From Deltaproteobacteria bacterium (lineage in GTDB: Bacteria > UBA10199 > DSSB01), in assembly GCA_024233625.1 (NCBI GenBank), contig JACKPJ010000004.1, positions 91,905-155,904 of the forward strand: a DNA stretch of 64,000 nucleotides. The letters run 5' to 3'. The translations under genes and the position numbers were made by a program. The notes below the pieces were generated by a model that saw only the letters and a list, made by a program, of their open reading frames with translations, ran no database searches and was not told the origin of the DNA. Positions 3,169 through 57,635 of the stretch are shown one piece after another (within the stretch, counting starts at the first letter, position 1; each line of letters opens with the position of its first letter).

Positions 3169-3250
3169 AACTTGACTTTGATCATAAATATATGTACATA
3201 TTTTGCAGGTGGTTTTGTAATTTATTTAGAAAACCTTTTTACGAAAAAAT

Positions 3251-3436
3251 ATGAAGAAAAAAGATCTCGAGAAACAACTAAAAGAGTACGGTTGGTGGTT
3301 TAAAAGAAGCGGAGGTAAACATGATATTTGGACTAATGGAGAGAGGGAAGAGCCTATACCGCGTCATCGAGAAATTAACGAAATATTAGCAAAAAAAATA
3401 TTAAAGAATGCTCGCTTAGCCTCTGATAAAAATTAA
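3251..3436 (+). CDS. hicA: HicA-family mRNA interferase toxin
   Basis: 61 aa with 'GGKHDIW...IPRHREINEILAKKILK', the typical HicA signature. A HicB-like gene follows. Confidence 0.8.
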   Translation: MKKKDLEKQLKEYGWWFKRSGGKHDIWTNGEREEPIPRHREINEILAKKILKNARLASDKN

Positions 3437-3470
3437 TTAAGGCAAAGAGCTTTCAAAGAGAGTCATAAAT

Positions 3471-3911
3471 ATGCTATTAGTCGGAAAAATTTGGAAAGAA
3501 AAAAAACATTATCTTATTGAAATCGAAGAACTGGATTTATTAACTCAAGGTCGCACAAAAAAAGAGGCCTATGAAATGATTAAAGATGCGGTTGAGTCTT
3601 TAGTGAATAAAAAGGATTTTTCGGTGGAGCTTTATCGAGATAAAAAGGATGTTTTTTACATCGAAGCAAATAATCCAGGTTTGCTCATGGCTTTAATATT
3701 AAAACGTCAAAGAGAAAAATACTGTTTAAGCATTCGTGATCTACAAAAGCGTTTAAAATTCAAATCACCTAATGCCTATGCACAATATGAGTCGGGAAAG
3801 CATCTTCCGACATTGGGGAAATTTCAGCAGTTTTTAGAAGCAATGGATCCTAATTTAATTCCTGTGATTAGTCTTAAACATACAGAGATATCTGCTTCAA
3901 ACATACGCTAG
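3471..3911 (+). CDS. hicB: HicB-like antitoxin with C-terminal HTH
   Basis: N-terminal HicB-like fold region ('LIEIEELDLLTQGRTKKEAYEMIKDAVE') plus a C-terminal XRE-type HTH ('LSIRDLQKRLKFKSPNAYAQYESGKHLP'). Confidence 0.7.
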   Translation: MLLVGKIWKEKKHYLIEIEELDLLTQGRTKKEAYEMIKDAVESLVNKKDFSVELYRDKKDVFYIEANNPGLLMALILKRQREKYCLSIRDLQKRLKFKSPNAYAQYESGKHLPTLGKFQQFLEAMDPNLIPVISLKHTEISASNIR

Positions 3912-7879: not shown

Positions 7880-9016
7880 TTATAATTCCTTTTCGTAAAT
7901 ACGATAGGTCTTGTAGCGCTTTCCTCCCATGAGTTCAATTCCCTGATTGATCGAAGTATTGTCTTCCAAAGTCCAGGAAAGTTCTCCTCTCATGTAGCCG
8001 TTGGCTTTGCCTCGGGTGTGGATTTCGGTGTAGAGCAGCATACTGAGCATGTTAAAGGGATGTTGTCGGAATTCTTTTTTGATACCCAATAAAAGCAAAC
8101 GGGCGTTGTCGCATTTTCGTCTTTTGATTCTCCAAAGCAGTTTTAAAAAGCCCAGAGGAAAGAGCTTGCCGTTGAGGCCCCGGATATATTCGTAAAAATT
8201 GGGAAGCGTCAGACACATGGCTGCGGGTTCGCCTTTGATTTCGGCAATGAGGGCAATCTTGGGATCGATGAAGAGCTTGAGATCTTTGGCCATTTGTTTG
8301 ACTTCGTAGTTTTGCAAAGGAACAAAGCCCCAATTATTCGCCCAGGCCGAGTTAAAAATATCCATGATTTTTTCGAGGTCGGCCTCCAGTTCACTTAGGC
8401 GAATTGGCCTCACCGTCAGGTCGGGATGCTTGGCTAATTCGGCAGCCAGTTGCAGTGGGGTATCAGGAATGTCTCCGGCCAAATAATTCCAGGCATAGAG
8501 GTCTTTGCATTTTTGATAGTTATTTTCTTCGATCAACTTTTCATAATAAGGAGGGTTGTAGGGCATCATCAAAGTGAGAGGCTGATCAAAGCCTTCGACG
8601 AGCAAACCGGATTCTCCATTGATCGAAAAATTAAAAGGTCCAGTCACCGAGACTGCCCGATTTTTTTTTAAATAATCTTCGGCATGTTCAAAGAGAACCC
8701 GAGCCGTTTCGGGATTATTTTCGGACTCAAAAAAACCAAAGTGACCGACGCGTTTGCCGTGACGTTTTTCGTATTCCTCATCGATCTGTGCCGAAATCCT
8801 TCCGACGACTTCTCCATTGCGTTTTGCCAAAAAAAGTTGAACCTGGGCATGTTGAAAGAAAGGATTTTTTTTGGGGTTGAAGAGGCGCTTTCTCTCAAAA
8901 TTGAGAGGCGCAATCCAGTGAGGATCGTTTTGATAAATTTGATGAGGCAGACCAATAAATTGTTTGAGCTCGGACTTGGTCTCTACCGGAACAATTTTAA
9001 GTTCAGCCGAGGGCAT
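7880..9016 (-). CDS. GNAT-like acyltransferase of unknown specificity (candidate bacterial ceramide synthase)
   Basis: I chose the ATG at 9016 (MPSAELKIVPV...) because the longer ORF start at 9109 would overlap spt by 107 nt. With 9016 the start/stop overlap with spt is 14 nt. 'FLAKRNGEVVGRISAQID' and the C-terminal half resemble the roughly 380-aa GNAT-related family. Confidence 0.6.
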   Translation of the reverse strand: MPSAELKIVPVETKSELKQFIGLPHQIYQNDPHWIAPLNFERKRLFNPKKNPFFQHAQVQLFLAKRNGEVVGRISAQIDEEYEKRHGKRVGHFGFFESENNPETARVLFEHAEDYLKKNRAVSVTGPFNFSINGESGLLVEGFDQPLTLMMPYNPPYYEKLIEENNYQKCKDLYAWNYLAGDIPDTPLQLAAELAKHPDLTVRPIRLSELEADLEKIMDIFNSAWANNWGFVPLQNYEVKQMAKDLKLFIDPKIALIAEIKGEPAAMCLTLPNFYEYIRGLNGKLFPLGFLKLLWRIKRRKCDNARLLLLGIKKEFRQHPFNMLSMLLYTEIHTRGKANGYMRGELSWTLEDNTSINQGIELMGGKRYKTYRIYEKEL

Positions 9017-10274
9017 TGCTCGCCTGCTTTTGAAGAAGGTGGTAGCGTTCTCCGACGACTTGAAAGGCATCCAGTGCTTGCTGAATATGTGAATCGTTGT
9101 GAGAAGCAATGGTGCTGATACGCAAAAGTGCCTTGTCGGGGGGCACTGCCGGATACACGACGGGATTGATGTAGACGCCCGCGTTGAGGAGTTCTTTCCA
9201 TAAGGTGAGTGTCGTCAAGTCATCTCCCAAAAATATCGGAATGATTGGGGTTTCACTGGGGCCCACATCCCAACCCATCTCAACCAACCCGTTTTTGAGT
9301 TTTTCGGCATTTTTTTGAACTTGCCGGACGCGTTCGGGTTCCTCTTGCAAAATATGAAATGCCGCGCGGGCAGCTGCCAAATTAGAAGGCGTGATCGAGG
9401 CCGAAAAAATCATCGATCTCCCAAAATGCTTGATGTAATTGATAAGGTCGGAATCTCCAGCAACGTAGCCCCCTGTGGAAGCGAGTGCCTTGGAAAAGGT
9501 TGCCGTGATGAGGTCGACTTCTTTGCTCAAACCAAAGTGACCGGCAGCGCCTTCTCCGCGAGGGCCCAAAGTTCCGATCGCGTGAGCGTCATCGACAATT
9601 AAAAGTGCCTTGTGTTTTTGACAAACCTTGACGATTTCGGGAAGGGGAGCGATGTCGCCCTCCATGCTGAAAATTCCGTCGGTGACTACAATTTTTTGAC
9701 GATCTGCTGGAGTTTTTTCTAAAGATTTGCCCAATGACTCCGCATCGAGGTGTTTATAAAATACTGGACGTGCAGCACTCATGCTGACGGCATCCCACAT
9801 GCTGGCGTGATTGAGTTTGTCCAAAAAGACGGTGGTGTTGGGATCGGTGAGTGCCGTGATGGTTCCAATATTGACTTGGTATCCGGTGGTGAAAATCAGA
9901 GCGGCTTCCTTGCCCAAAAAATCGGCGATTTCTTCTTCAAATTCTTCGTGTAAACTTAAAGTTCCGTTGAGGAGGCGCGAACCCGTCATACTGGTGCCAT
10001 AGGTCTCGATAGCCTTGATGGCTGCTTCACGGACTTTAGGATGTGTGGTTAAACCGAGATAATTATTAGAGCCCATCATGATGACGCGTTGACCATTGAG
10101 CACAGCCTCGGCACCCTGGTTATCATCTAAAGCTTGAAAGTAAGGGTAGGCCTCGAGTTCGCTCGTCAATTGAATGAGCTTTTGAAATTCCTGTGCTCGT
10201 GTGCGAATGTCTTTGTCTCCCATATTATTGAGAGAGAGACGACTGTTAAGAAGCTGATCAAGATTTTTTGTCAT
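9003..10274 (-). CDS. spt: Serine palmitoyltransferase-like alpha-oxoamine synthase (PLP)
   Basis: 'GSRLLNGT' is the SPT-type variant of the AOS glycine-rich loop. It also has 'DDAH', the PLP-lysine region 'TFSKALAS' and 'FSMEGDIAPL'. ATG at 10274, with an alternative TTG at 10283. Confidence 0.8.
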   Translation of the reverse strand: MTKNLDQLLNSRLSLNNMGDKDIRTRAQEFQKLIQLTSELEAYPYFQALDDNQGAEAVLNGQRVIMMGSNNYLGLTTHPKVREAAIKAIETYGTSMTGSRLLNGTLSLHEEFEEEIADFLGKEAALIFTTGYQVNIGTITALTDPNTTVFLDKLNHASMWDAVSMSAARPVFYKHLDAESLGKSLEKTPADRQKIVVTDGIFSMEGDIAPLPEIVKVCQKHKALLIVDDAHAIGTLGPRGEGAAGHFGLSKEVDLITATFSKALASTGGYVAGDSDLINYIKHFGRSMIFSASITPSNLAAARAAFHILQEEPERVRQVQKNAEKLKNGLVEMGWDVGPSETPIIPIFLGDDLTTLTLWKELLNAGVYINPVVYPAVPPDKALLRISTIASHNDSHIQQALDAFQVVGERYHLLQKQASNALG

Positions 10275-10576
10275 AGTGTTCAAGCCAATTTTAAAGCCGT
10301 TAAAATTTCCCCCTCGACTTTGGGTGATGCTTTCAACTTCTGTTGTCGTGTAAGTCTTGGGTTTTTATTGATGCCGCACATTGTCCAGAATATCTCTAAA
10401 AGTCAAATATATAATCAGAAAGTCCAGAATAGCTGGTCTGAACATTTTTAAAGCTTCTTAGGAGTAAAAACGAAAAATTTAGCTTAAGCTATTGAGTTTT
10501 ATATAAAATGTGCTATATGCACTTTAAATAAATGTTATTGAATTTATTATAGTTTTTCGAGTTTGAGGTAAAGTTA

Positions 10577-12259
10577 ATGCCGGGGAGTCATTCTACATCT
10601 GCTTTAGGTGTTCAAATAAGTGTTGCAGAACTTGGGGTTATTCAAAATTTAATGACTGATTACCTTCAGCCGGCTTATTCTCATTTAAAAGGCGGAGAAG
10701 GCATCAATCTGACTCAGCAAGAGTTAGATTTCTACTTTGGAAACGAGTTCAGGGCGAGAGAATTTACCGACTTTCATCAGCAATTTCAAGCTCTGATCAT
10801 GGGTGAGTCTCAGCTGATGTGTTTGGGAGAGGAGTTTCAGGTCGAGTTAAACCCGGCTCAGGCGGCCTTTGCGCGAAGCGTTTTGCTCTTTTCGCAACGC
10901 ATCCAACATTCTACTAATCCTGAACAAGCAAAGGTTCTTGCTCGACTTTTATCTAAAATTGATGTGTCTAGCTATGCAGATTTTGTGGCTTCAGGGCAGG
11001 CGCGCCGTTTTCGACAACACGAAGCTGCTCGGCGTCGTTGGGCAGGCATGGATAGGTCCCAAGCAGTTCAAGATCAATTGCAGGTCATTTCAAGCTTGTC
11101 GATGACAGTGGATTTTTATGAACGGGCTATTGCGTTTACGCTTAAAAAGCTTCTTCCTTTAGAAAACTTGGGGGCATTAGATCGAACTTGGTTGCAAAAT
11201 GAGGGAAGTCAAGTGGTCGAAGATCTTAAAAAGATGGGCATTTATTTGTGGTTAGTCGAAGGAGTACCTTCCCTGCAAGAGGTCGAAGCCGTTATGGAAT
11301 CAGAAGTTGCTCCTCTGCTTCAACCTGGAGAAAGTGTTGAACAAGCCGAGATAGAAATCTTGCGTGTTCGTGAAACAGACGATCGGCAAAGCACTTTAGT
11401 CGTGTTTGTTCAGAGTACAAGTCCTTACAAAAAGATACAGGCAATTGAAATCGATTGGGTGTTTATCACAAACCTGAGTGCCTATTTTAAAGTGATGGAC
11501 TTTCCTTTAAGAACCCAAGAAGAAATTCGTCGTACTCTATATCAAGCTCGGCAAAAAGGGCTCGGATTTTATGTCAAACAAGCCCTTATCGCTAAAGTTG
11601 CTATTCTTCAGCTTCAAGATATTCGTGAAATTTTAAGTAAGGAGGAATTAAGTAGGGAGGAATTGTCGGTTGCAGGTCAGGACCAGAAGTTCAGGCTCAA
11701 GTTCAAAGCTGGTTTGCTGAAAAGGGTTATCTCTGAACTCGAAAAACTGCAACCACTTCATGACTTACTCATGGAGATCGATAGGATGGAAACACATTTT
11801 GGAAGAGCCGATTTATCTGATGGGGGAAGATCGCATCAAGATTCGAGAGTCGGGTTTTCTGGAGCAAATGAAAGGTTTAAAGCTGAAACAAAAGTATTAG
11901 AGAGGCCTCAAAAACCCACTCAAAATGAAAGTTTGGATGTAAGCCCCGATCTAAATGCAGCGTTTCACTCTTTAGTCGATGATATTGCCAACGATAATAG
12001 GCCTGTTGAACAAGCAGTGCTTGACTTTGCAGCACGTTTGATTACTAGTGAAGATCGCCCTGACTGGGCGACTAGTGTCGATATGGTCATTCATGAATTG
12101 CAAAATCAGGGGCCTTATTATGATGAGATTCGCGATCTAACAGGTGATCACGAGCACTTTGATCGTATTATAGTAGAACTGCGTCGCTTTGGTTATTTTG
12201 TTTCAGGAAGTCGACGTCACCGTCGATCAAAGAAGGAAGGTCCACAGTTCCGGCATTAG
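10577..12259 (+). CDS. Orphan paralog P1 (560 aa), family A, basic C-terminus
   Basis: Long ORF with a GAGG RBS 10 nt upstream and 'MPG' N-terminus. No signal peptide or known motif. Clearly paralogous to P2 in the N-terminal, central and C-terminal regions. Ends 'GSRRHRRSKKEGPQFRH'. Confidence 0.75.
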   Translation: MPGSHSTSALGVQISVAELGVIQNLMTDYLQPAYSHLKGGEGINLTQQELDFYFGNEFRAREFTDFHQQFQALIMGESQLMCLGEEFQVELNPAQAAFARSVLLFSQRIQHSTNPEQAKVLARLLSKIDVSSYADFVASGQARRFRQHEAARRRWAGMDRSQAVQDQLQVISSLSMTVDFYERAIAFTLKKLLPLENLGALDRTWLQNEGSQVVEDLKKMGIYLWLVEGVPSLQEVEAVMESEVAPLLQPGESVEQAEIEILRVRETDDRQSTLVVFVQSTSPYKKIQAIEIDWVFITNLSAYFKVMDFPLRTQEEIRRTLYQARQKGLGFYVKQALIAKVAILQLQDIREILSKEELSREELSVAGQDQKFRLKFKAGLLKRVISELEKLQPLHDLLMEIDRMETHFGRADLSDGGRSHQDSRVGFSGANERFKAETKVLERPQKPTQNESLDVSPDLNAAFHSLVDDIANDNRPVEQAVLDFAARLITSEDRPDWATSVDMVIHELQNQGPYYDEIRDLTGDHEHFDRIIVELRRFGYFVSGSRRHRRSKKEGPQFRH

Positions 12260-12332: not shown

Positions 12333-14003
12333 ATGCCAGAGATTACTGTCCATTCGGCATCCATTATAAAAACTTGGATACATAATCAGGTGCGTCGTGC
12401 CTATTTAGGTCCTCGTGATAATCAAAAAACAGACGCTTCGTTCGCAGAGGGTTCTCAGGATGCTCTTCATCAGACGGATTTAGAGCATCACATCATCAAC
12501 CGCCAAAGAATCCGCGATTTCTTTTTTTCAGACCTCGAATATCGTGATTTAACAAACTTGGCACGTGATCTGGATTACCTCATGACTGCTGGAAATATGG
12601 AATGTTTGCCAGGGGATCAAAAAATTCCTTTAGATGGACATCAAGCAGCTATCGCCAGTAGTGTTGTTCAATATGTGCGGGCGACGAGTACGTCGGATGC
12701 ATTTACACAGTATTCTCTTAACCCTGATCAGCTCTTAGAACAATTAGGTCAGGCTTATACGCCTCAAAAAAAATCCCGCCAAGAAATTAGAAGACAAGTC
12801 TTTCAGCGCGATCAAAGGCGTTGGGGAAGTTCTAGTCCGCTTTCTCAAACTATGGCTGGAGAAACTATTGATTCAGTGAGTGCTGATTCCGAGAGATATT
12901 CAAGAGAAAATGTTGTGAAGACTCGTTGGGTAAAAGCGGTACCTGTCAAAGATGAGCAGTTGAGTATTTCGGCGACTCGTGCAGCGATGGAGGCTTATTA
13001 TCGTCTTCCCTTGCAAGAAGGACGTTTTGATGTCGCCAAATGGAATAGTGATTATCAAGAGATTCAAAGAGCCTTGGCACTTCAAGGCGTTCAGGTTTGG
13101 GTTTGGGGAGCCGAAATCGGCTCGGAGCAGGTCTTGCAGCAGGTTCATTCAAATCTTTCTGAATATGCTTATTCCGATGCAGAGGTCAGGTCTGGCTTGG
13201 TGGCTTTGACTTTTAAAGTTCTTCCATCTACTCTTACGGGGGAAGATGCTACACCTGACTCAAGTCAGCCGAAAGCCAGGGTGACAGTGGCTGCATTTTT
13301 AGATCCTGTGGAGAGTCCCTCGCTACAAAATAGCATCGATTGGGAGCTCATTGATCAATTGCAAAAAGCGGATTTATCATTGGGTTTAAATTCAAATCAA
13401 AAACAACTTTTGCGAGAAATTCCTCAGCTTCTTGAAAGAGAGCACGCTTTGGACAGCTCTCATATTCGAACTTCGATTTTTATCTTAGAACAAGCCCTCT
13501 CAGGTATTCATCAAGGTCATTTAACTCTTCAAACAGGGAAAGAAACTTATTTATATTATCAAATAAACAAGCTGAACTTACTTTTAAGTCAAGTACCTGA
13601 AGCTAAGATTGAGACTCATTTAGAAGTCGGTCACTTAGAAAGAGAACCCGCAGCACCGCTGTCATTGAAAAGAGGTCTTGAAGAGGCCTACGCTCGCTTT
13701 GAGGGCTTGGTTGTAAGGGATCCGTCTCGAGCAGTCCATAATTTTGCAATTTACCTCGTCGAAAATTCGGGAAATTTTCCGGATTATTTGAATTGGGCCA
13801 CTGATGTCAATGCTGTGCTCTATTACCTCAATGAAGGTGGAGAAAAAATGTATGAACTTGCAAGACTAACCGAAGAAGGCGATTGTTTTTATCAACGCAT
13901 GGACAGTTTACGTCGTTTAGGAGTTTTTAGAGATGCGAGTGCAGAGTTCTTAACTCGTCGGCAGCTGGAGACAATGTCAAAAAAAGGGAGGGTGCTGAAA
14001 TAA
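12333..14003 (+). CDS. Orphan paralog P2 (556 aa), family A
   Basis: AAGGA RBS and 'MPE' N-terminus. Alignable by eye to P1, e.g. 'AVHNFAIYLV..NWATDVNAVLYYLNEGG' against 'AVLDFAARLI..DWATSVDMVIHELQNQG'. Ends 'SKKGRVLK'. Confidence 0.75.
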   Translation: MPEITVHSASIIKTWIHNQVRRAYLGPRDNQKTDASFAEGSQDALHQTDLEHHIINRQRIRDFFFSDLEYRDLTNLARDLDYLMTAGNMECLPGDQKIPLDGHQAAIASSVVQYVRATSTSDAFTQYSLNPDQLLEQLGQAYTPQKKSRQEIRRQVFQRDQRRWGSSSPLSQTMAGETIDSVSADSERYSRENVVKTRWVKAVPVKDEQLSISATRAAMEAYYRLPLQEGRFDVAKWNSDYQEIQRALALQGVQVWVWGAEIGSEQVLQQVHSNLSEYAYSDAEVRSGLVALTFKVLPSTLTGEDATPDSSQPKARVTVAAFLDPVESPSLQNSIDWELIDQLQKADLSLGLNSNQKQLLREIPQLLEREHALDSSHIRTSIFILEQALSGIHQGHLTLQTGKETYLYYQINKLNLLLSQVPEAKIETHLEVGHLEREPAAPLSLKRGLEEAYARFEGLVVRDPSRAVHNFAIYLVENSGNFPDYLNWATDVNAVLYYLNEGGEKMYELARLTEEGDCFYQRMDSLRRLGVFRDASAEFLTRRQLETMSKKGRVLK

Positions 14004-14076
14004 TTATTTAACTGTAATGATAGTTTTTTTATTTTCATAGCAGAAAAATTTTGTGTTTTAAATCATAAAACTAAGC

Positions 14077-14099
14077 AACTTTTTGCTAATTGAAGCGAT
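14077..14099 (+). promoter_or_regulatory. ECF-type promoter-like motif AAC-N16-CGAT upstream of P3
   Basis: 'GCAACTTTTT' then 11 nt then 'CGATA'. The 14-mer 'ctaagcaacttttt' (14071-14084) is repeated at 16462-16475. The architecture matches 58947-58970. Confidence 0.4.
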
Positions 14100-14158
14100 A
14101 ACTATAGAAAAAAATAATGATAAAATTTATTCTTTAAAAACATAGGGGAATCCATTTC

Positions 14159-16432
14159 ATGCCACCACCCATAGGCTCTTCTGGCCAAGCTCAAAACCTC
14201 AACCATGAAGCTTTAATTGAAAAAATTTCGGAGTTTGCAGCTCTTACAACTTATGAGCGAGCTAGTTATATTCGCCGTATGAACAGCTTGGCTGGCGTTT
14301 CGGGTAGGTTTAATACGCAAGGCTTGTTCGATTTAAAAAGAAAATTAGAAAATTTAAAAAAAGGAATTGGAAGGGGGTTAACAGAAGCTGATACCAATAG
14401 GCTCCTGTGGTTGCAAAGGCATTGGGAAATTGAAGACACTTATGAAAAAGCTCCGGTGCCTAATCCAGTGACCAGCCTGTTAGCGACAAGTGCAGACGCG
14501 GCAGTGGCCCTGACTCGTGGAGCAGCGAGGTTTATGGCTTCACCAAGCGATGCCATGGCTGAACTGAGCAGTGCTACAGATTCTACAGGTAATTTAGATG
14601 CAATTCGTCTTGAAACAACAAGGCGGTTGTTAAATTTTTTGAAGGAAGGGGCAATCGAGGTTTCTGCAGCAAGCCCTCTGCATATTTCCATGCTCCTCAG
14701 GACTTTACCTGAGCTTTTGGGTGACAAGAGTTGGCATCAACAAAAAAGGGAAAATGTTATAAGAATTTTGGAAGCTAATTTCCTCCGTGATTCCACAAAG
14801 ACAAGTTCAGAGGCGCAAACTATGGCTAGAGAGGTCGTGGACTGGTTGCGTTCTTTTCAACGAGTTGAAGACTTGAGTTATGATAGGTATCGTCCTGTGT
14901 CTATAGCCTCCCCTGTCTCTGCAGAGCAGCCCGCTTCGACCCTTGAGTGGAAGTCTCCTATTGATTCGGATCGAGTAGAAGCTGTAGACGCTGATCCAGA
15001 TAGCCCCGATGTTCGAGCTTCCAGGCGTCGACCACCCGCGATGCGTGAGGCTGATGAGAAAAAAGTTTCAAAAGTGACTTTGCCTGAACCCCCATCCTTA
15101 GAGAGCTCTTTAACAGATGAACAACAATCTTTTGTCGTGAAAGTTCGTCGACCTTTAGGAATCTCCACTCCTGGCCAAATAGCTAAGCTGCAATTAGAAC
15201 GAGTTACGGAAGTTTATTCAGCTTTATCTGAGCTCGGGGATGCGCTCCGCGGTGAAGATGATGGGGATCCGTTTTTAAGAGAGGTAGAGCATTATCTGTC
15301 TGTCTTGGAAGTCTGGGATGAGGCCTACCTAGAAGGCACTGTTCATGATTTACCGCCAGAATTGGTACGAGCGGAGTTATTATTAGAGTTTTCGCAAGAA
15401 AAAAATCTGATTTTGTATGGGCTCAAGCTTCCTGCGGTCCATGAAATTCCACCTGGTTGGTTGCAAGATCGACTGGCGAATTTGATCAGTCGTATAGAAA
15501 ATATAAGGGATTTTCCCGAGACCAGGCATAATTTGATTGCAGCATTGGCTTTAAGCCCTCAGGTCAAAGAGAGTATTTTAGATCAGAAACTTGTCGGCCT
15601 CAGGGATGAACTCAAATCTGCACAAGCTGAGCTGGAGGGAGCACTCCGTGAAGCAGAGAGTGTTGATGCCAAAGGAAAAGTGTTTGAAAACTGGTCAAAG
15701 AAGCATGCTCGTTTTGTTGCTCTTTCCATTGTATTGACTGGTGAGGGGCGTTCTCCACAAGGGCAAGCCTTATTATCTCGAGTGCAAAAAGAGCTTTCTC
15801 TGCGTGATCTCCATGTTTTTGAGCGTATTATCAAAAGTGTGATGGGAGAATCCAGTTATCTGATTGACCATCACGGTCGTACGCAGTCCGCGCCAGCTGA
15901 AGATTTACACAGGTTAGCTATACAAATTGCTGAGAGAGAAGATCTGAAGCCGTATTTTAGCAGGGCAAATTTAGATTCTAGTCAAGCGATTGCCATAGTA
16001 GAACAAACTTTAGAGCAATTTCCGGGATCACTTTTAGGTGAACCTGCTCTTGACGTCAACTCTACTGCTCCAATAGGGGACCAACTCGCGGCCCAGCATC
16101 TCAATGCCTTGGCGACTCGATCTTTAAAGACTTATCTTGCAAGGCTTGCTGAAGCAAGAAGCGCTGTTTCATCTTTTAGAGCCAGGCGCTCCGGAATCGT
16201 TTCTGATGCTTCAGGTGTTTCCGAAGATGGGGAGGGCGTCATTCAAGGCAGGAAAAGAGGTAAGAGATCGCGTCCTGGTAGTGAGGATATAGCGGGAAGA
16301 ACTCGGGGCAGAACTGCACCAGAGGATCCAAAAGCAGAAGCAGGAAGAGAAGAGTCTTCAGTAAAAGATACGAGCGATAGAAGAAAAATTTCTGCTAAAG
16401 AGGGAAAGTTAGCCCCAAAAGGAGTAAAGTAA
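14159..16432 (+). CDS. Orphan paralog P3 (757 aa), family B, long Arg/Lys-rich tail
   Basis: GGGGA RBS and 'MPPP' N-terminus. Shares the core 'WSKKHARFVALSIVLTGEGRSPQGQALL' with P4, P5 and P8. 'SGIVSDASGVSED' precedes an approximately 70-aa basic tail. Confidence 0.75.
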   Translation: MPPPIGSSGQAQNLNHEALIEKISEFAALTTYERASYIRRMNSLAGVSGRFNTQGLFDLKRKLENLKKGIGRGLTEADTNRLLWLQRHWEIEDTYEKAPVPNPVTSLLATSADAAVALTRGAARFMASPSDAMAELSSATDSTGNLDAIRLETTRRLLNFLKEGAIEVSAASPLHISMLLRTLPELLGDKSWHQQKRENVIRILEANFLRDSTKTSSEAQTMAREVVDWLRSFQRVEDLSYDRYRPVSIASPVSAEQPASTLEWKSPIDSDRVEAVDADPDSPDVRASRRRPPAMREADEKKVSKVTLPEPPSLESSLTDEQQSFVVKVRRPLGISTPGQIAKLQLERVTEVYSALSELGDALRGEDDGDPFLREVEHYLSVLEVWDEAYLEGTVHDLPPELVRAELLLEFSQEKNLILYGLKLPAVHEIPPGWLQDRLANLISRIENIRDFPETRHNLIAALALSPQVKESILDQKLVGLRDELKSAQAELEGALREAESVDAKGKVFENWSKKHARFVALSIVLTGEGRSPQGQALLSRVQKELSLRDLHVFERIIKSVMGESSYLIDHHGRTQSAPAEDLHRLAIQIAEREDLKPYFSRANLDSSQAIAIVEQTLEQFPGSLLGEPALDVNSTAPIGDQLAAQHLNALATRSLKTYLARLAEARSAVSSFRARRSGIVSDASGVSEDGEGVIQGRKRGKRSRPGSEDIAGRTRGRTAPEDPKAEAGREESSVKDTSDRRKISAKEGKLAPKGVK

Positions 16433-16467
16433 GTGTTTAAAAAATATATGTTTTTAAAAATCTAAGC

Positions 16468-16490
16468 AACTTTTTCTCTCTTCATACGAT
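16468..16490 (+). promoter_or_regulatory. ECF-type promoter-like motif AAC-N16-CGAT upstream of P4
   Basis: 'GCAACTTTTT' then 11 nt then 'CGATG', with the same spacing as 14077-14099. Confidence 0.4.
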
Positions 16491-16646
16491 GATTAAAGAG
16501 AAATTGATAAAGTCGTTACGGCATTAATTTATCAAAAATATTATAAAAAATCAAAAACCCTGGTCATTTCATAATGTGCTAAAAGTGTCGCTGAATATCG
16601 ATAAATTTTAGTGTGATGTTGATTTTTTAACAAAAAGGGAATTTTT

Positions 16647-19385
16647 ATGTCAGTAGATGCGGGTAGGTCCTCACAAGAGTTAAATCTGGCGGGTTTTCAA
16701 AAAGAAGCTGAACGGATTTTAGAATTTCAGGGGAAAGAAGTTCATAGAGCTATTGGTAAATTAAATGTAAGAGCAAAACCAGCTATTTTTTTTAAGAAAA
16801 GTGAGTTGCAGAGATTACTTGGTTTAGTCAGCCAAGGTAGAGAGTTAAAACCCCGTGACCGAGAGCGAATTGGAGAGTATCTTAATGCAGCACAACTTGA
16901 TGTTTATGTAGAATCAGCACCTGCAGCCGATGCTGTGTTGAGAAAACCTTCCTCCTCTAAATCACCCACATCATTATTTGGATCAGCTACAGCCGCTAGC
17001 GCTACCATATACGGAACTTCCTCTGAAGGGTCTGGTGATACCTTAATGTCTGTCGACCCGAGTCTAGTTGTAGAGGAAGAACTCCTCGCTTCATTTCCTC
17101 CAGAGCCTGAGTCACATATGTCAGAGGTAGCTTCAGACATAGATCGTGCAGCCGACGGAACCATAGGGCCTTTCTCGACAGATGACCCTCAACAACAGAC
17201 TATATCGGATGCTTGGGAGGCCAAAGATTGGACTCCTCCTAAAGGGAATTGGTGGAAAGAGACTAAGCCTGAGTTGAAGACACTTTTCAGCGTCTTCACA
17301 CTTTTGGCTGAAATCAATCGCCAAGCAGTAAGTGACGGAAAAAGAGTTCCAGTGCCATCACAAGAAATGTCTGTTCATCGTCTGATAATGCAGCGTGTAG
17401 TGAAAAGCGGACAGGCTTTAGCTAATAATCAAAGCGTCGTGCTCAAAGCTTTATTGTATATCGAAGCCAATCTGCATCACGTCGAGGAATCGGACACTTT
17501 AATCATTCGTGCTGTTTTAAAAAAATGGCTCGGTCGTGAGCTCCAAGCACCTGCATCTGTGTCAAACGAAGCAAATGCAAAGCCGGTCGTTGAAGCTTTG
17601 CCAGTTCGGTACGTTCCAAGCGCAAGAAGTGATATCGACTATAATGTTTTAAGTGCCGCTTTAGCTAAGTTCAGTGACTTACTTGATTATCCTAACGATG
17701 CCCTTAACGCAAGTGTTGCGGAGTCTTTTCGTAAATCGAACTTCAGTGTGCCTGGAGATGAGGTTCAAAGACATGTTAAGCATTTGAGTGATCAAATTTC
17801 GGAAGCTCATGCCTCTTTTGAGGAGCTCTTGCACAGTCCAGATATCGAAGCTGAAAGACTCGAAGTCTGGACGCGTGAGCATTCAGGCTTGTCTGCACTT
17901 GCTCTCGTCTTAACAGGTCAAGGGCATCGTCCTCATGCTCGTGCAATCTTAGACTTAACTGAGGGGCATTACAACTCAGCTTGGGCACAGACTCTTGGCG
18001 AGATACTCGAGAGCCCCATGGGAATTCATGTGCATGAGTTACAGGAAATTATGAGAAGAAGCTTTAATCTGCTAGATACTCCTAATATGCGACCAGTCCA
18101 AGAGACAGTCGCCAGGCGAGTATTTGAGCGACCTGATTTGGCTAAAGCTTTTGCGGATGCGGGGGTAACTGAGCATGAGGCCATTAATATTATAGAGACT
18201 GTTTTGGCAAGTGACGCTGCGGCGCTTTTACCTGTGGATGCCCCTGAACTTGCGCAGGCCTCACCCGTCGGTTTGGAAGCATTAAGTGAACAAGAGATTA
18301 TCGAAATTCAAAAAATGATGGATGTGGCTTTAAATGTGCCATCTGATGTTAACTTAAATCTTAGTATTAGCGTGTATGACTTGAGAAAGCGTGCAGGTTG
18401 GATAGGAAGAGGCCTTAGAGTTGTTAAAGCAAATTTTAATCGACGAAATGACTTCTTAGAATCAACAAACCCTAGAACTAGAGCTGCATTATCCTCTGCA
18501 ACCGCTCACATTTGTAATTTGGTCGCAGTGATAAGAGCGGATCGTATTACTCGGTCAAATCAGTCAACACCGCTTTTGTCTTCAATCTTAAGAAAACTCA
18601 TGCCGACATTGGATGATAATAGAGAAGCTCAAGAGCATACCTTAAAAAGCGTCGCAAAAAATTGGACAGAATTAGCCGAACCCGATTCAACAGGTAGAGC
18701 TTATGTCCCTGAGAGAAACACTGATTTGGCTCGAGCCAATGAAATTGCGACTGAAGCTTTAAAAGTTGAGTTGACTCGTCTGGAAAATCAAAAAAAATCG
18801 CGTTTGATCGAAACGAGGCAGAAGGTTGGTGAAACTTACCCAACTCGAGAGCTTTCCCCTGATGCCTACGCAGAAGCGGCTTTGGAATTTACCCAAGCTC
18901 TGTACGATCTTTTTAAGGGAGATCTTGATTTAAGGCATGCTAGATATGCCGGCATAGCTAGGGATATTCAGAGTGAAAGAGGTTTTCTGACATTTTTGAC
19001 TAATTATCAGAATGCAGAATTAATGTCAGAGTGGCTTAGTGAAAGAGGCTTTTCTAATTTTGATCTCGGTCCGAAGCCCATTCAAAGTATTGCATATACA
19101 GGATTTAGTTTTGTTACTGAGCGAAGTGGTCGAGGCCAATCGGGTTTTATTGCGGAAGACGCAGTTGAGGTGAGAGGTTTTGAGGATACAGTTGGAAGAG
19201 ATCGAAGTGACCGCACTCGAAGCCGTGTTGGACGGCCTGCTCGTGGCGCTGCTGAATTTACAGAAGAACGTCAAGAAGCTCCAAAAGCTAAAAGCTCTGG
19301 ACGAAACGAGTCTATTGATGTAGAGGGAAAAGCTAAGTCTAAGCCGCGAGGAAGAGGCCCAGGAGGAATCATTAAAGGGAAGTAA
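16647..19385 (+). CDS. Orphan paralog P4 (912 aa), family B
   Basis: AAGGGA RBS. Core 'WTREHSGLSALALVLTGQGHRPHARAIL'. 'SGFIAEDAVEV' is followed by the tail 'RSDRTRSRVGRPARG...KPRGRGPGGIIKGK'. Confidence 0.75.
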   Translation: MSVDAGRSSQELNLAGFQKEAERILEFQGKEVHRAIGKLNVRAKPAIFFKKSELQRLLGLVSQGRELKPRDRERIGEYLNAAQLDVYVESAPAADAVLRKPSSSKSPTSLFGSATAASATIYGTSSEGSGDTLMSVDPSLVVEEELLASFPPEPESHMSEVASDIDRAADGTIGPFSTDDPQQQTISDAWEAKDWTPPKGNWWKETKPELKTLFSVFTLLAEINRQAVSDGKRVPVPSQEMSVHRLIMQRVVKSGQALANNQSVVLKALLYIEANLHHVEESDTLIIRAVLKKWLGRELQAPASVSNEANAKPVVEALPVRYVPSARSDIDYNVLSAALAKFSDLLDYPNDALNASVAESFRKSNFSVPGDEVQRHVKHLSDQISEAHASFEELLHSPDIEAERLEVWTREHSGLSALALVLTGQGHRPHARAILDLTEGHYNSAWAQTLGEILESPMGIHVHELQEIMRRSFNLLDTPNMRPVQETVARRVFERPDLAKAFADAGVTEHEAINIIETVLASDAAALLPVDAPELAQASPVGLEALSEQEIIEIQKMMDVALNVPSDVNLNLSISVYDLRKRAGWIGRGLRVVKANFNRRNDFLESTNPRTRAALSSATAHICNLVAVIRADRITRSNQSTPLLSSILRKLMPTLDDNREAQEHTLKSVAKNWTELAEPDSTGRAYVPERNTDLARANEIATEALKVELTRLENQKKSRLIETRQKVGETYPTRELSPDAYAEAALEFTQALYDLFKGDLDLRHARYAGIARDIQSERGFLTFLTNYQNAELMSEWLSERGFSNFDLGPKPIQSIAYTGFSFVTERSGRGQSGFIAEDAVEVRGFEDTVGRDRSDRTRSRVGRPARGAAEFTEERQEAPKAKSSGRNESIDVEGKAKSKPRGRGPGGIIKGK

Positions 19386-19390
19386 GTTAT

Positions 19391-21994
19391 ATGCCGGGAA
19401 ATGAATTTAATCCAAATAATATCGATCACCGTGAGCGTTTAGTAGCGTGGATTGAGGCTGCGTTTGTTCAAGATGAAACAAAAATCCCCAAAGAAGGTCT
19501 TTTAAGCATCACAAGTCTAAATAATTTACGTAATGAATTACTTGATCAAGAGGTGGCTTTGGGTCCAGAACAAGAGGCACTTGCCAGTGCTTTGTGGAGT
19601 TCTAAACAAAGGATTGACCAATATGTTAAGAGACCGGTCTCTGCGCCACAAACTACAGAATTTAGAGTGAGCCCTTTTTGGTCTCCCTTTGAACCGCAAT
19701 CCCGAACAGTAGAACATGATCCTCAGCAAGGTATGAGTAGGGACAAGTCTTTTAATTCCGTTGAGGCAGGTTCTGAATCACAAGTGACATTTTCTTCTGG
19801 AGAGCATATTTCAATTAATGAAGCCGATCGTTACCGTGGTCGTACATATGAAGGGACTATAAAGAGAACAATAAGAAAAGCTTTACAGAGGCTGTCAAAG
19901 CCGACTGCACACGAGTGGGATTGGAGTAAAATAGATGAGTTAAGCTCTTTATTGGAAATGAAAGCACCATGGAAAATCAGTTTGAGTTTTATCGAATTGG
20001 CTATCGAGGCCTTAGATCTTGCTTATAATAGATGGCCTGTTAATCCTCGTCCACAACCCAAAAGCATCTCATTAGTGAATGAGATGATTGTATGGCTAAG
20101 AGGCTTGTCTTATCAATTGAGCTCTCAAAGTGCTATTGAGGCAGTCCCTGTAGTTGCTGCAAGTGATTTATTTATACAATATGTTCCCACTTCCGCGGGT
20201 GTAGCAACAAAGCCAGAACCATTGCAAGTTGAGCAGGTCTTGAGAGCCTTGACCTTGATTGTTGAGGAAACAGAGCATATTGCATATAAAGAATTACTAT
20301 CCAATTTAGAAGCATGGTGGCAGGTTAATCATACTTCTGCGGGTGAAGTTCAATATACTAGAGATTTACAGCGAGCAGAGCATGCCATCGCGGAGTGGAA
20401 ATCCGGCGCTCTGAGAGTGAGTTTACCACCTTCTCAAGAAGTCCATTCTTCAGGACTGGACTACTCAATCCTTGAGGAAAGTGCCTACATTTTGCGATCG
20501 CAATTAGAACGGGGTGATCAGGATTTACCGAATACTTTGCAGCAACTTGATCCAGCTCTAGCTGAATCATTTGATCAATCTATTGAAGCTCTGGAAGATT
20601 TTGCAGTAGACAATCCCAGTTTAGATAAGTGGAAACATTGGATTGCTCAACGCCCTGAGCTTAGTTCCATTGTTTTGGTCCTGGCCGAAAATAGTCGTAA
20701 CCCCCATGCTCAGTTAATTTTGCAGGAGATCAGTCCACATGTGAGCGAGTGGACCCTGGCGAGACTTTCTGTGCTTCAAGATTCAACCTTTGGAACAGGC
20801 TTATGGGAAGTCGAGGCGATCAAAGGCCAAGCTGCTGACTTGTATGCAGAGTGTTTTTTGCTGGATAATCATGCCATTCAGCAAAGAGCCGTTGAATTAT
20901 TAACAGATTCTGCTTTAATGAGTGCCTTTGAAGCAGCCGCCATTCCTGTTGAGGAGGCTTTGCAGATCTTGGAGGAAGCTATTGTCGAGTTGGGACATTG
21001 GCCTTCAGCAAAGGGTGTCAATCAAGCAGCTGCACTTCCCTTGCAAGAAGCTCAAGTAGTAGCGGTATCAGAGGCCCTGACTCTTGTTGAATTTTCTAGA
21101 GCTAGTGACCCTGCCTTATCTAGTTCCATAGAAATGGAGAAAGATGCATGGAAGCAGTTTTTAGAGGATTGGAAGCAGCGAACAGATCCCACACGTTGGA
21201 CCTCTCAACATAATCAGCGACTTCAGCAAGTTTTAGAGCTTATTTTAGAGGCAAAAGCTATAAAAGATGAGGCTGCAAGAGAGGTCTTAGCAAAAGTGAT
21301 TTCTGATTTAAAGCTTCAACAACAACTAAATCACAAGGAGCCTGAAGCAAATCGGCAAGCTCTTGCAGCGGAGACCGATTTGGCTTTGCAAGGAGTCATG
21401 AGACGACGACTGGAAAATATTCGTCAGAAGAAAATCTTACGGCTTCAATCTGCTTGGGACCTTTATGAGAACGTCAGGGATAGCAGTCATCGAACATCTG
21501 GTACAAATCACTTTAAACTTATGCGTGCTCGACGTTTTATAGAAGCTCTTGAAGCCCTTTGGCAAGTTAGACATCAAGAAACAACAAGTTATGACTTTCG
21601 AACTTGGTTGCAGGGAGTCTCTTTGGGATCCCCATTAGAAAGGCAATTAGAAACTGAGTTGAAAGACTTATTGGGTAGTAGCATGTCTTATCGAAAACTG
21701 AGAAAAGCGATTACTCATTCGATAGGTAGGGGTGATTTGAGCACTTCTGGATTGATATCAGAGGCAAATGCAGTTGAAGATAATACACCACTGGCCTCGC
21801 GTGGTCGAAGAGTACGAGGATCAGAAATGCGCGCTATTGAGGCAGGCCGAGTGCGTAGTGGAGTGACGTCTGAAGCGGAGAGTCGTAAGATATTATCGAG
21901 AGCAGAGCGACTTCGTGCAGCGCAAAGAAGCGCAAGAGAGCGTATGCGTAGCGAAATACCGGGTGACATTTCAGGAAGAGTATTCACTAAATAA
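19391..21994 (+). CDS. Orphan paralog P5 (867 aa), family B
   Basis: Starts 5 nt after the P4 stop, with 'MPG' N-terminus. Core 'WIAQRPELSSIVLVLAENSRNPHAQLIL'. 'SGLISEANAVED' is followed by 'RGRRVRGSEMR...GRVFTK'. Confidence 0.75.
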   Translation: MPGNEFNPNNIDHRERLVAWIEAAFVQDETKIPKEGLLSITSLNNLRNELLDQEVALGPEQEALASALWSSKQRIDQYVKRPVSAPQTTEFRVSPFWSPFEPQSRTVEHDPQQGMSRDKSFNSVEAGSESQVTFSSGEHISINEADRYRGRTYEGTIKRTIRKALQRLSKPTAHEWDWSKIDELSSLLEMKAPWKISLSFIELAIEALDLAYNRWPVNPRPQPKSISLVNEMIVWLRGLSYQLSSQSAIEAVPVVAASDLFIQYVPTSAGVATKPEPLQVEQVLRALTLIVEETEHIAYKELLSNLEAWWQVNHTSAGEVQYTRDLQRAEHAIAEWKSGALRVSLPPSQEVHSSGLDYSILEESAYILRSQLERGDQDLPNTLQQLDPALAESFDQSIEALEDFAVDNPSLDKWKHWIAQRPELSSIVLVLAENSRNPHAQLILQEISPHVSEWTLARLSVLQDSTFGTGLWEVEAIKGQAADLYAECFLLDNHAIQQRAVELLTDSALMSAFEAAAIPVEEALQILEEAIVELGHWPSAKGVNQAAALPLQEAQVVAVSEALTLVEFSRASDPALSSSIEMEKDAWKQFLEDWKQRTDPTRWTSQHNQRLQQVLELILEAKAIKDEAAREVLAKVISDLKLQQQLNHKEPEANRQALAAETDLALQGVMRRRLENIRQKKILRLQSAWDLYENVRDSSHRTSGTNHFKLMRARRFIEALEALWQVRHQETTSYDFRTWLQGVSLGSPLERQLETELKDLLGSSMSYRKLRKAITHSIGRGDLSTSGLISEANAVEDNTPLASRGRRVRGSEMRAIEAGRVRSGVTSEAESRKILSRAERLRAAQRSARERMRSEIPGDISGRVFTK

Positions 21995-39181: not shown

Positions 39182-40570
39182 GTGAAAAAAAAACGAGGGG
39201 AAATGATTGCAATGGTTAAGCTAAGCGTGTTGCTGGTTTTTGTGATCGTTTTGGGAGCTCTGCTGGTTATTTTTTCCAATCAGGATATTCAAGCTGCAGG
39301 TCCAGTGGATGTTGATCCAACGGGAGCTCCCTTACGTTGGGAACAAGGAGCCACGATAGTTTTTAATCCTGAACATGGGGCGCTAAAAGCTGCAGGCGGC
39401 TATGACAATGCGAAGAGTGTCAATCTGGTTAAACAAGCATTTCAAACCTGGATGAATATTTCTAATGTTAATCTCAACTACCAACAAGGTAGCTATCTCA
39501 ACGATGGTGGAGATGTTAATGCTTCAAATTTTCAAAATTTTCTCTATCAAGGCACTCAGGGCTGTTATGCAGATATTTTGGGTTTAACCCCAGAGGAGGC
39601 AGGTCCTTGTTGGGCACCGGTGATTTTTGACGAAGATGGTTCGATTATCGAGTCTCTCTTTGGTTCTTGTAATCAATTCAGTGTTCGTGCAGTAACGAAG
39701 GTCGATGATATTAATAATATGTCTGGAGATCCCGAGCGCCGTATTATTCGCCGCAGTAGCATGATTATTAATGGTGCTTGTATTCCCCCTGTGACGACTA
39801 AGTCCGGTTGTGGAGGTTGCTCGCGCGAGCTCACCGAAGAGGAAGTTTATGATACCATCGTCCACGAGGTCGGGCACTTTTTGGGGCTAGGTCATAGTCA
39901 AGTCAACCCAGATGCCTACGACCGATGTAAGAGTGGGGGTTGTAGTGGGGCTGACGTCGAAGCGATTCCGACAATGTTTCCCACCTCGATGAGTAGTGTT
40001 AATTATTCGACTTTGCATGAAGATGATAAGGCCTATATGAGGCGCCTTTATGCCAATGCTTCTAATCAATACTGCAGTGTTTCCGGGAAGGTTTTTGATA
40101 CCGATGGGGTGACAGAAGTTGCTGCTGTTGAAGTGGTTGCGGTTGATTCGAGTTCGGGTTCGGGTTGGATTGCAGGACTTTCGGGAGCTGAGTCTCCGCA
40201 AAGTTCCCAAGGGGTTTGTACAAGCAACTGTGGATCTTACCTTTTAACCGGTTTGCAGGAAGGTCGCACTTATCAGGTCTGTGCCCAAGCGGTTAATCCA
40301 ACTTTTAAAGGGATCTCTTCCATTGCTAACAAATCGCAATCAGTTATCAACTTTCCTCGGACTTGTCCTGAATCGATGAATATCACCTGTCAATGTTCGG
40401 GAGGAACTTGTGATACTTATGCAGGCTTTGACATCACCATTGGTCAGGGAGCAACCACTTACAATTCTTATGACCCAGGTTCGAGTTCGGGATCTAGTTC
40501 GAGTGGAAGCAGCTCTAGCAATGGAAGTAGCGGGGGCGCTGGTGGTGGCTGCAGTTTGTCGATACCTTAA
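39182..40570 (+). CDS. Secreted metzincin-type zinc metalloprotease
   Basis: GTG start with signal-like 'LSVLLVFVIVLGALLVIF'. Has 'HEVGHFLGLGHS' (HExxHxxGxxH) followed by a Met-turn candidate 'IPTMFP'. The C-terminus is a Ser/Gly tract ending 'GGGCSLSIP'. Confidence 0.75.
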   Translation: MKKKRGEMIAMVKLSVLLVFVIVLGALLVIFSNQDIQAAGPVDVDPTGAPLRWEQGATIVFNPEHGALKAAGGYDNAKSVNLVKQAFQTWMNISNVNLNYQQGSYLNDGGDVNASNFQNFLYQGTQGCYADILGLTPEEAGPCWAPVIFDEDGSIIESLFGSCNQFSVRAVTKVDDINNMSGDPERRIIRRSSMIINGACIPPVTTKSGCGGCSRELTEEEVYDTIVHEVGHFLGLGHSQVNPDAYDRCKSGGCSGADVEAIPTMFPTSMSSVNYSTLHEDDKAYMRRLYANASNQYCSVSGKVFDTDGVTEVAAVEVVAVDSSSGSGWIAGLSGAESPQSSQGVCTSNCGSYLLTGLQEGRTYQVCAQAVNPTFKGISSIANKSQSVINFPRTCPESMNITCQCSGGTCDTYAGFDITIGQGATTYNSYDPGSSSGSSSSGSSSSNGSSGGAGGGCSLSIP

Positions 40571-54904: not shown

Positions 54905-54936
54905 GGGAATTAAGATTAATTTTCAAAGGAAGACTT

Positions 54937-56118: not shown

Positions 56119-56163
56119 AAATAGAGCGAGAGCAAGCGACGAGTTGATTGCTTGGGTCTAGTC

Positions 56164-56619
56164 ATGAAAATAATAAAAAAATCACACATTCACAAACCAT
56201 GTGTTGGCTGGAGAGAATGGTTGGAATTGCCTGAACTGGGCATTCCAGCAGTTAAGGCCAAGGTCGATACGGGTGCAAGGACCTCTGCCATTCATGCCTT
56301 TAAAGTGGAACCCTTTCAAAAATCAAAAAAGCACTATGTGCGTTTTTGGGTACATCCGTTGCAAAAAGATAAAAAGTATAAAATTTGTTGTGAGGCCCCT
56401 TTAGTTGATTATCGTTCTGTAGTGGATTCGGGAGGACATCGTGAAAAAAGATATGTGATTGAAACCCCTGTGAAGTTGGGTGATTACATTTGGCCGATCG
56501 AAATAACTTTGACTAATCGAGATACCATGCTTTTTCGCATGCTTTTGGGCCGTACAGCGCTAAAAGGTCGTTTTGTAGTCGATCCAGGTTTATCATTTTG
56601 TATAGGTAAGCTTAAATAA
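56164..56619 (+). CDS. Retropepsin-like / 'ATP-dependent zinc protease' family protein (RimK-associated)
   Basis: ATG at 56164. 'VGWREWLELPELG...KAKVDTGARTSAIHA' signature. Located upstream of rimK. Confidence 0.75.
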   Translation: MKIIKKSHIHKPCVGWREWLELPELGIPAVKAKVDTGARTSAIHAFKVEPFQKSKKHYVRFWVHPLQKDKKYKICCEAPLVDYRSVVDSGGHREKRYVIETPVKLGDYIWPIEITLTNRDTMLFRMLLGRTALKGRFVVDPGLSFCIGKLK

Positions 56620-56730
56620 AATAAACTTAAAATTGGATTTAAGCGAGTTAAAGAGTGTGCTAAAGTTTTTTAGTAGAGACGCAAGTAAAAAACTCGTTTG
56701 CTGTTGGATAAAAAAACTCAAGGAGGGGAA

Positions 56731-57633: not shown

Positions 57634-57635
57634 AT

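Follow-up and report, generated by a model that had tools for sequence, protein, structure and literature searches.

Several described effectors of type IV secretion systems (T4SSs) offer points of comparison for the proteins reported here. The Agrobacterium VirB/D4 substrates bear a C-terminal arginine consensus, and the Bartonella Beps are composed of a BID domain and a positively charged tail (PMC10025392). The tails of XVIPCD modules are disordered and variable; their last six residues include arginine and hydrophobic residues and no acidic ones, and the deletion of these six residues abolishes translocation (PMC8740702). The Glu-rich signals of the Dot/Icm effectors display similarly basic and hydrophobic last seven residues (PMC8740702). 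The S4TE criteria for type IV effectors (PMC3814349) ask, among other things, that the last 25 amino acids (aa) contain at least three H/R/K residues and carry a charge of +2 or more, that the global hydropathy be below -200 and that position -3 or -4 be hydrophobic. The locus compared here to these systems is an array of eight plus-strand open reading frames (ORFs), P1 to P8, in a stretch of 64,000 nucleotides (nt) from a Deltaproteobacteria bacterium (GTDB lineage Bacteria; UBA10199; DSSB01; assembly GCA_024233625.1, contig JACKPJ010000004.1, positions 91,905 to 155,904). This whole stretch is called the window, and all positions are counted from its first letter. The third protein, P3, ends in a short motif followed by an Arg/Lys-rich tail, a combination pointed out in an earlier note made from the DNA letters alone (the original prediction). 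This C-terminal module recurs in P1, P2, P4, P5, P7 and P8 and in one foreign protein, P0005, which together make up the eight members considered below. It is described here as a conserved element of the proteins and, tentatively, as a possible export signal.

The core of the module reads S-G-h-h-[S/A]-[E/D], where h is a hydrophobic residue. Queried as the regular expression SG[FILVM][FILVM][SA][ED], it is found in the real frames of P3, P4, P5 and P7, for a chance expectation of about 0.05 matches per 5355 aa of the array composition. The six-frame translation contains a single extra match, at position 8709, which is unrelated and lies in a frame broken by stops. The distance from SG to the C-terminus amounts to 80 aa in P3, 81 in P4, 82 in P5 and 79 in P7, and to 78 aa in P8, where the motif is degenerate. 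All the motif and tail peptides quoted in the original prediction were located in plus-strand ORFs, and its span of 16190-16432 extends exactly from SG through the P3 stop codon. The coordinates that it attached to the individual motifs do begin at SG; the full strings quoted with them start 6 nt earlier and extend slightly further (Table 1). The weaker versions that it listed in P1 and P2 were recovered as well, RRFGYFVSGS and RRLGVFRDAS aligning with RRSGIVSDAS of P3 to give a short version RR-x-G-h-h. The module thus has a long and a short form, since only about 20-25 residues follow the motif in P1 and P2.

The codons of the motif vary synonymously from copy to copy, Ser being encoded by TCC, TCG, TCT, AGC or TCA (a TCN/AGC switch) and Gly by GGA, GGT or GGG, and no long DNA repeats linking the genes of the array were found. 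What is conserved is therefore the protein sequence of the motif, the paralogues being old, and recent gene conversion is ruled out on the same two grounds. A full-length alignment of six sequences displays 6 invariant columns in total, 4 of which belong to the C-terminal module (S678, G679, R705 and E722 in P3 numbering). As judged from these comparisons, the module is a real, selected feature common to otherwise highly divergent proteins.

The tails are basic and the bodies acidic. The net charge from the motif onward is +5 to +7, the bodies being mostly at -17 to -30 (P7 body, -1), and the last 25 aa of P1 reach +8. Arg accounts for 17.7% of the last 70 aa of the tails versus 4.8% in 37 other window ORFs (p about 6e-19; this p-value and the other statistics on the motif and tails exaggerate independence because the carriers are paralogues). 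These other ORFs favour Lys over Arg, and at least 10 Arg within the last 70 aa are encountered in array members only. The arginines are moreover patterned: RG/GR dipeptides occur 26 times and RxR 21 times, versus 12.2 and 10.4 in shuffles that preserve composition, with none of 5000 shuffles attaining either observed value. Within the last six positions, all eight members (seven from the array and the foreign one) have K/R and a hydrophobic residue, each at least once, and lack D/E, as do 11 of 39 background ORFs; under a stricter version of this rule the figures become 7/8 and 4/39. The Arg/Lys-rich tails and the similar extreme ends announced by the original prediction are both borne out by these statistics. 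No residue-by-residue alignment of the tails is obtained, yet their parts follow a common order. The motif, (R-R/x-x)-S-G-h-h-S/A-E/D, comes first with a small acidic patch (VSED, VEV, VED) and is followed by an arginine cluster in G-R-x-R layout, by a mixed-charge spacer that is missing in P1 and P2, and by an acid-free basic and hydrophobic end, G-(R/P)-h-h-x-K.

On the basis of pairwise and profile comparison, P1-P5, P7 and P8 are seven tandem paralogues of one divergent orphan family. All seven, and P0005 as well, share an N-terminal module that spans about 100 aa, and P3, P4, P5 and P8 share a central domain (P3-P4, E 3e-12). P1 and P2 pair as paralogues (E 1e-8), and P7 is joined to the family weakly, via its C-terminus. 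Part of the C-terminal resemblance therefore stems from common descent, since the paralogues share N-terminal and central modules, a point that the original prediction did not stress. Neither a signal peptide nor a transmembrane segment was detected in any member: the maximum 19-residue Kyte-Doolittle hydropathy does not exceed 1.51 and the N-termini are polar (MPG...), with no Sec/Tat signal. Low Cys content is usual in proteins that are exported or translocated unfolded. The family contains 7 Cys in 4642 aa, or 0.15%, versus 1.1% in neighbouring genes, a 7-fold depletion (p 3e-15). The AlphaFold2 (AF2) model of P3, built from a six-sequence alignment, is all-alpha and devoid of strands, at low confidence (mean predicted local distance difference test score, pLDDT, 52.8). 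Its last predicted helix stops where the motif starts, and residues 676-757 are modelled as coil at a pLDDT of about 30. Foldseek comparison of this model with the PDB returned nothing with E below 0.5, and sequence searches of the same database, run with P4 and with a profile for each of the three modules (N-terminal, central and C-terminal), gave nothing below E 0.1. Pfam, NCBIfam, PHROGs and PADLOC searches of all eight array proteins gave nothing significant (Pfam/NCBIfam at E up to 1 or 0.1).

The central-domain profile was also compared to 1.84 billion representative proteins. The search returned the four inputs (E 2e-82 to 3e-52), two matches that are repeat-protein artefacts and one convincing outsider, P0005 (813 aa, E 5e-13), encoded on a 2.8 kb contig of 43% GC from SRA run SRR26424859 (Logan). 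P0005 carries GSGIASSAEVFQD (GSGIASSAEV) 71 aa from its end and terminates in GPLTRGRK. The SG pair is thus invariant in old paralogues and in a second organism, at a flanking identity of just 18-28% and with saturated synonymous sites. The ORF that follows P0005 (L001 2727-2795) opens with MTPPRSIPHPQRQLLIQRIDEVL, a second paralogous N-terminus, from which it follows that the tandem array recurs in the second organism. When compared to 5.8 billion protein clusters, P3 and P0005 each matched nothing but themselves. No match was obtained in a genome collection scanned with P4, in a metagenome collection scanned with P0005 and P5, in a viral collection scanned with the C-terminal alignment and P3, or in plasmids queried with P4 by tblastn. 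The flanking thiolase retrieved 80 loci from the genome collection, none with a family member and none near enough for synteny. By the measure of these searches the family is very rare, with two organisms across 1.84 billion representative proteins.

Table 1. Coordinates of the array genes, of the conserved parts of their products and of associated elements in the window
Feature	Position	Strand	Description
P1	10577..12259	+	560 aa, family member, short form of the C-terminal module; ORF and translation
P1 short motif RRFGYFVSGS	about 12182-12211	+	then RRHRRSKKEGPQFRH
P2	12333..14003	+	556 aa, family member, short form of the C-terminal module
P2 short motif RRLGVFRDAS	about 13911-13940	+	end KKGRVLK
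Intergenic direct repeat, copy 1	14067..14112	+	46 nt, 64 nt past P2 stop
P3	14159..16432	+	757 aa, H7A32_03550, protein carrying the finding
P3 central conserved domain	15509..16102	+	aa 451-648
P3 motif RRSGIVSDASGVSEDGEG	16184..16237	+	directly after the last predicted helix (residues 656-675)
P3 Arg/Lys-rich tail, predicted disordered	16238..16429	+	GRKRGKRSRPG, then GRTRGR, end APKGVK
Intergenic direct repeat, copy 2	16458..16503	+	46 nt, 26 nt past P3 stop
P4	16647..19385	+	912 aa, family member
Central domain equivalents	P4 17685-18302; P5 20447-21082; P8 26137-26631	+	profile search and alignment
P4 motif GQSGFIAEDAVEVRGFED	19134-19187	+	tail end GGIIKGK
P5	19391..21994	+	867 aa, family member
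P5 motif STSGLISEANAVEDNTPL	21740-21793	+	tail end GRVFTK
P6	22011..24056	+	681 aa, outside the family
P7	24246..25424	+	392 aa, shortest family member
P7 motif STSGIVSESSTVDAVEVSD	25179-25235	+	tail end VIRFKRGR
P8	25498..27294	+	598 aa, family member
P8 degenerate motif NSGILREE	27055-27078	+	tail RGRRAVGVRS, RRRRKLRQ, end RGPFTK
Downstream operon	from 27477		thiolase / 3-hydroxyacyl-CoA dehydrogenase / enoyl-CoA hydratase

The module is real: it is under selection at the protein level, its arginines are clustered and it is predicted to be disordered. The proteins that carry it lack N-termini of the Sec/Tat type. The reading favoured here for its role is that it may constitute a two-part C-terminal recognition or export signal resembling that of T4SS substrates, a tentative proposal in which we infer the signal role, the export and the machine alike and which we consider possible and somewhat doubtful. 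Each protein would be a soluble, acidic, all-alpha and Cys-poor chain whose last helix leads into the unstructured module. The partner onto which the linear motif docks would be common to the family, for instance an adaptor, a chaperone or a translocase with its receptor domain, and the flexible positive tail with its conserved end would then engage the export channel. A non-random motif at a fixed position with synonymously diverged codons argues for this proposal, as does the retention of the motif, the basic end and the tandem array by P0005. The invariant columns within the module, its modelled position right after the last helix, the absence of N-terminal signals, the Cys depletion, the S4TE profile and the last-six rule count in its favour as well. 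Fast-evolving, tandemly duplicated orphans with no detected enzymatic domain also fit an effector repertoire.

Each of the systems introduced above resembles the family in some respects and departs from it in others. Agrobacterium VirF, VirE2, VirE3 and VirD5 share with it a hydrophilic, disordered and net-positive C-terminus, an R-x-R alternation and the lack of an N-terminal signal peptide (PMC10025392). The array proteins differ from these VirB/D4 substrates in that about 50 aa separate their Arg clusters from the C-terminus, in that S-G-h-h-S-E precedes these clusters, and in that no VirB/VirD4 genes were seen in the window and the 10 kb past its end. The Bartonella Beps follow the same two-part logic, a conserved element and then a disordered positive tail, within a tandemly amplified family (PMC10025392, PMC8740702). 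Their conserved element is however the BID domain, in which about 100 aa are folded into four helices, whereas the array proteins have a linear motif, some 10-14 aa long, that opens the disordered region. Pfam and NCBIfam yielded no match to BID, and the helices that precede the tail in the AF2 model of P3 are of low confidence and match nothing in the PDB. The Xanthomonas X-Tfe effectors likewise have a C-terminal module in common, the XVIPCD, which spans about 80-120 aa and has a variable tail that follows the same rule for the last six residues (PMC8740702). The XVIPCD is distinguished by an alpha-alpha-beta-beta-beta core, conserved His/Gly/Asp-His-Val and related residues and a Gln-rich tail; in the array no strands are predicted, the tail is Arg-rich and the carriers are all paralogues. 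Finally, the Legionella/Coxiella Dot/Icm effectors are similarly hydrophilic with a positive extreme end, and they form fast-evolving families of orphan paralogues (PMC3814349, PMC8740702), a likeness that extends to the hydrophobic residue at -3/-4 in five of the eight members. The family departs from them by the lack of an E-block, with no Dot/Icm genes seen in the window and the 10 kb past its end.

The S4TE criteria were applied to the eight members and to the background ORFs of the window. The last 25 aa of every member contain 6-11 H/R/K residues, carry a charge of +2 to +9 and have a negative hydropathy; a charge of at least +2 is also displayed by 13 of 39 background ORFs. The basicity, charge and global hydrophilicity criteria apply to all eight members, and no background ORF combines four of the five S4TE criteria. 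Of the three options that the original prediction left open (a T4SS signal, a nuclear localisation signal and an RGG-type tail), the first is accordingly supported by these generic criteria and by the last-six rule; it is not supported by the strict Agrobacterium consensus or the E-block, both absent, nor by the tail of P0005, which is neutral.

A number of observations weigh against an export signal. All 46 window ORFs of at least 150 aa were scanned against Pfam and same-organism Logan contigs were used to add 10 kb beyond the window end; no secretion-system gene or coupling protein was found in the 64 kb window or in these 10 kb. The flanking genes are devoted to metabolism, DNA repair, translation factors, tripartite ATP-independent periplasmic (TRAP) transport and sigma factors, with a RimK cluster. 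The arginine consensus of Agrobacterium substrates, reportedly described by Vergunst in 2005 (cited in PMC10025392) as R-x7-R-x-R-x-R near the C-terminus, was searched for in this form and occurs in none of the eight members (the looser R-x-R-x-R occurs in 3/8). No E-block (EExxE) is present within the last 30 aa of any of the eight. The main Arg clusters are situated about 45-55 aa from the C-terminus and not at the end, and the specificity of S4TE-type criteria is low. A true targeting signal would be expected on unrelated cargo as well; no non-homologous protein carrying the module was found, and the family is paralogous over its whole length. Lastly, the P0005 tail has a net charge of 0 for a body at -3 and is positive only in its last ten residues. 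Net positivity of the whole tail is therefore not conserved; the motif, its approximate spacing and the basic end are conserved across the two organisms. Membership in any of the described signal classes is not established, no test that defines such a class having given a positive result. A bolder version of the proposal, which we regard as unlikely, holds that an undescribed two-part translocation signal is made up of the motif, the arginines and the terminal G-x-h-h-x-K. It would mark a private effector repertoire and hence an uncharacterised secretion route, directed at a host or prey, in an uncultured deltaproteobacterial lineage, with P6 as a possible part of the same system.

The same patterning of the tails would suit proteins that stay in the cytoplasm, where the disordered tail would bind a polyanion (RNA, DNA or polyphosphate) and, through its GR/RxR clusters, would anchor a scaffold that is large, acidic and helical on nucleic acid. 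We judge this explanation to be rather improbable. It is consistent with RG/GR and RxR frequencies twice those expected from composition, with tails at 18% Arg in an otherwise Lys-preferring genome, with the predicted disorder and with the fact that no export apparatus was seen in the window. RG/RGG and arginine-rich-motif nucleic-acid-binding tails are indeed disordered and enriched in Gly and Arg in the same manner. The array tails differ from them in having acidic residues interspersed and no RGG repeats. The RGG-type tail evoked by the original prediction was in fact not found, as no RGG triplet occurs in any of the eight tails and the enriched RG/GR dipeptides form no boxes. The neutral tail of P0005 and the length of the P1/P2 tail, just about 20 aa, also speak against polyanion binding, and no nucleic-acid-binding domain was detected with Pfam or NCBIfam. 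Such binding would moreover leave the S-G-h-h-S-E motif, the extreme end, the Cys depletion and the sevenfold tandem amplification unexplained.

It could also be that the module has no dedicated function, or a role in turnover only: a low-complexity disordered end inherited from the ancestor of the paralogues and acting at most as a protease recognition tag. A basic and hydrophobic terminus serves as such a tag in the ClpX C-motif-2 class, of which MuA RRKKAI is an example. Every carrier is homologous, the tails cannot be aligned position by position, disordered termini are common and a basic acid-free end is present in 28% of the background ORFs, all of which agrees with simple inheritance. 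Against these stand the SG pair kept invariant despite the divergence of its surroundings, the motif-to-end distance held constant (78-82 aa) in five members and an Arg patterning above the composition expectation, so that this account too is given little credence.

Regulation or assembly within the family is a further candidate, of which we are more sceptical. The basic tail would contact its own acidic body, a neighbouring paralogue or P6, either for autoinhibition or to build a hetero-oligomeric scaffold, and the SG motif would be the docking strand. The opposite charges of bodies and tails are in keeping with this arrangement, the N-terminal module common to all members could serve as the receptor, and the genes are tightly clustered with P6 embedded between P5 and P7. 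The structure models are too poor for docking; the charges of P0005 (body -3, tail 0) show that the complementarity is not conserved. Among the patterns of classical eukaryotic nuclear localisation signals (NLSs), which the original prediction also compared to the tails, K-[KR]-x-[KR] occurs in P2, P3 and P7 and a run of at least four basic residues in P8; neither occurs in P1, P4, P5 and P0005. That these clusters are NLSs of nucleomodulins delivered to a protist or animal host is very improbable, even if the effector-like features cited for an export signal apply equally, as the patterns are confined to 3-4 of the eight members, are nonspecific and expected by chance in any Arg-rich tail, and presuppose both secretion and a eukaryotic host, among neighbouring genes of broad metabolism typical of free-living bacteria.

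Other export or sorting routes were considered and rejected. A type I (RTX-type) substrate is not supported, with no HemolysinCabind or other Pfam match and no ATP-binding cassette (ABC) or membrane fusion protein (MFP) genes adjoining the array. Sec/Tat export was set aside for want of a hydrophobic N-terminal signal peptide or a twin-arginine motif. Encapsulin or microcompartment cargo peptides, sortase/CTERM signals and the C-terminal domains of type IX secretion system (T9SS) substrates were likewise discarded, as no hydrophobic anchor, matching motif or neighbour genes of such kinds are present.

Should the export signal be true, the effectors of an uncultured lineage could be listed simply from their sequence, by the motif, an Arg cluster and the basic hydrophobic end, and the two-part C-terminal signals known from T4SS substrates would gain a variant based on a linear motif. 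Should nucleic-acid binding or assembly be correct instead, large acidic scaffolds whose tails have patterned arginines would be defined as a new family. The wider importance is limited pending a full genome or an experiment that ties the module to a machine.

The window is part of a bacterial chromosome and has a GC content of about 42% and an even GC skew. The array is flanked by an aminotransferase gene (9003-10283, minus strand) and by the operon listed in Table 1. P3 is identical to the NCBI entry 'MAG: hypothetical protein H7A32_03550 [Deltaproteobacteria bacterium]', encoded on a contig of 156 kb. The gap between P4 and P5 measures 5 nt, and P4-P5-P6 look co-transcribed because P6 begins 16 nt past P5. 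The intergenic gaps of the array are AT-rich (21-33% GC), and no small ORFs that could be candidate chaperone genes were found in them. A promoter and terminator scan gave a signal no higher than chance and the Rfam search returned zero matches. The two copies of a 46-nt direct repeat, located after P2 and P3, are 72% identical and have an exact 14-nt core in common (CTAAGCAACTTTTT); this repeat may be a regulatory or terminator element shared within the array. The hypothesis of a horizontally acquired island received no support, as the GC content and skew of the array equal those of its flanks and neither tRNA nor integrase is present.

P6 is unrelated to the family. It contains 11 Cys, a Gly/Ala-rich hydrophobic C-terminus and internal repeats of about 90 aa in at least two copies (FPSCDEV... 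and IPACDEV...); a helix of the form W-[KR]-M-x-[RK]-x-F-x-E comes after each of them. It is an orphan, its comparison to 5.8 billion protein clusters having returned a self-match only, and its single-sequence AF2 model (pLDDT 34) is unusable. The start retained here is the ATG at 22011, which has the better ribosome-binding site; the GTG chosen by NCBI lies earlier and overlaps P5 by 80 nt. P6 may be a membrane partner of the array proteins.

A few other features of the window were recorded. A 471-aa protein (61994-63409, minus strand) combines an FHA domain at its C-terminus with an N-terminal body that is extremely acidic, at a net charge of about -67. Its match to the model of the YscD cytoplasmic domain is due solely to the generic FHA fold. 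The RimK cluster (56152-58679, plus strand) comprises a putative ATP-dependent zinc protease, a RimK ATP-grasp ligase and an AstE/AspA-like deacylase, and two paralogous genes for lactonase-like beta-propellers lie upstream of it (53666-56118). Near the window start, a HicA toxin with a helix-turn-helix (HTH) antitoxin (about 3250-3900; also L084) and upstream RelE/MqsA-like genes flank a MeaB gene. Finally, a metalloprotease-like ORF (39182-40570, plus strand) gives weak matrixin, reprolysin and M66 matches and has a Ser/Gly-rich end, ...SSSSGSSSSNGSSGGAGGGCSLSIP, which could be a C-terminus of lipidation or sorting type.

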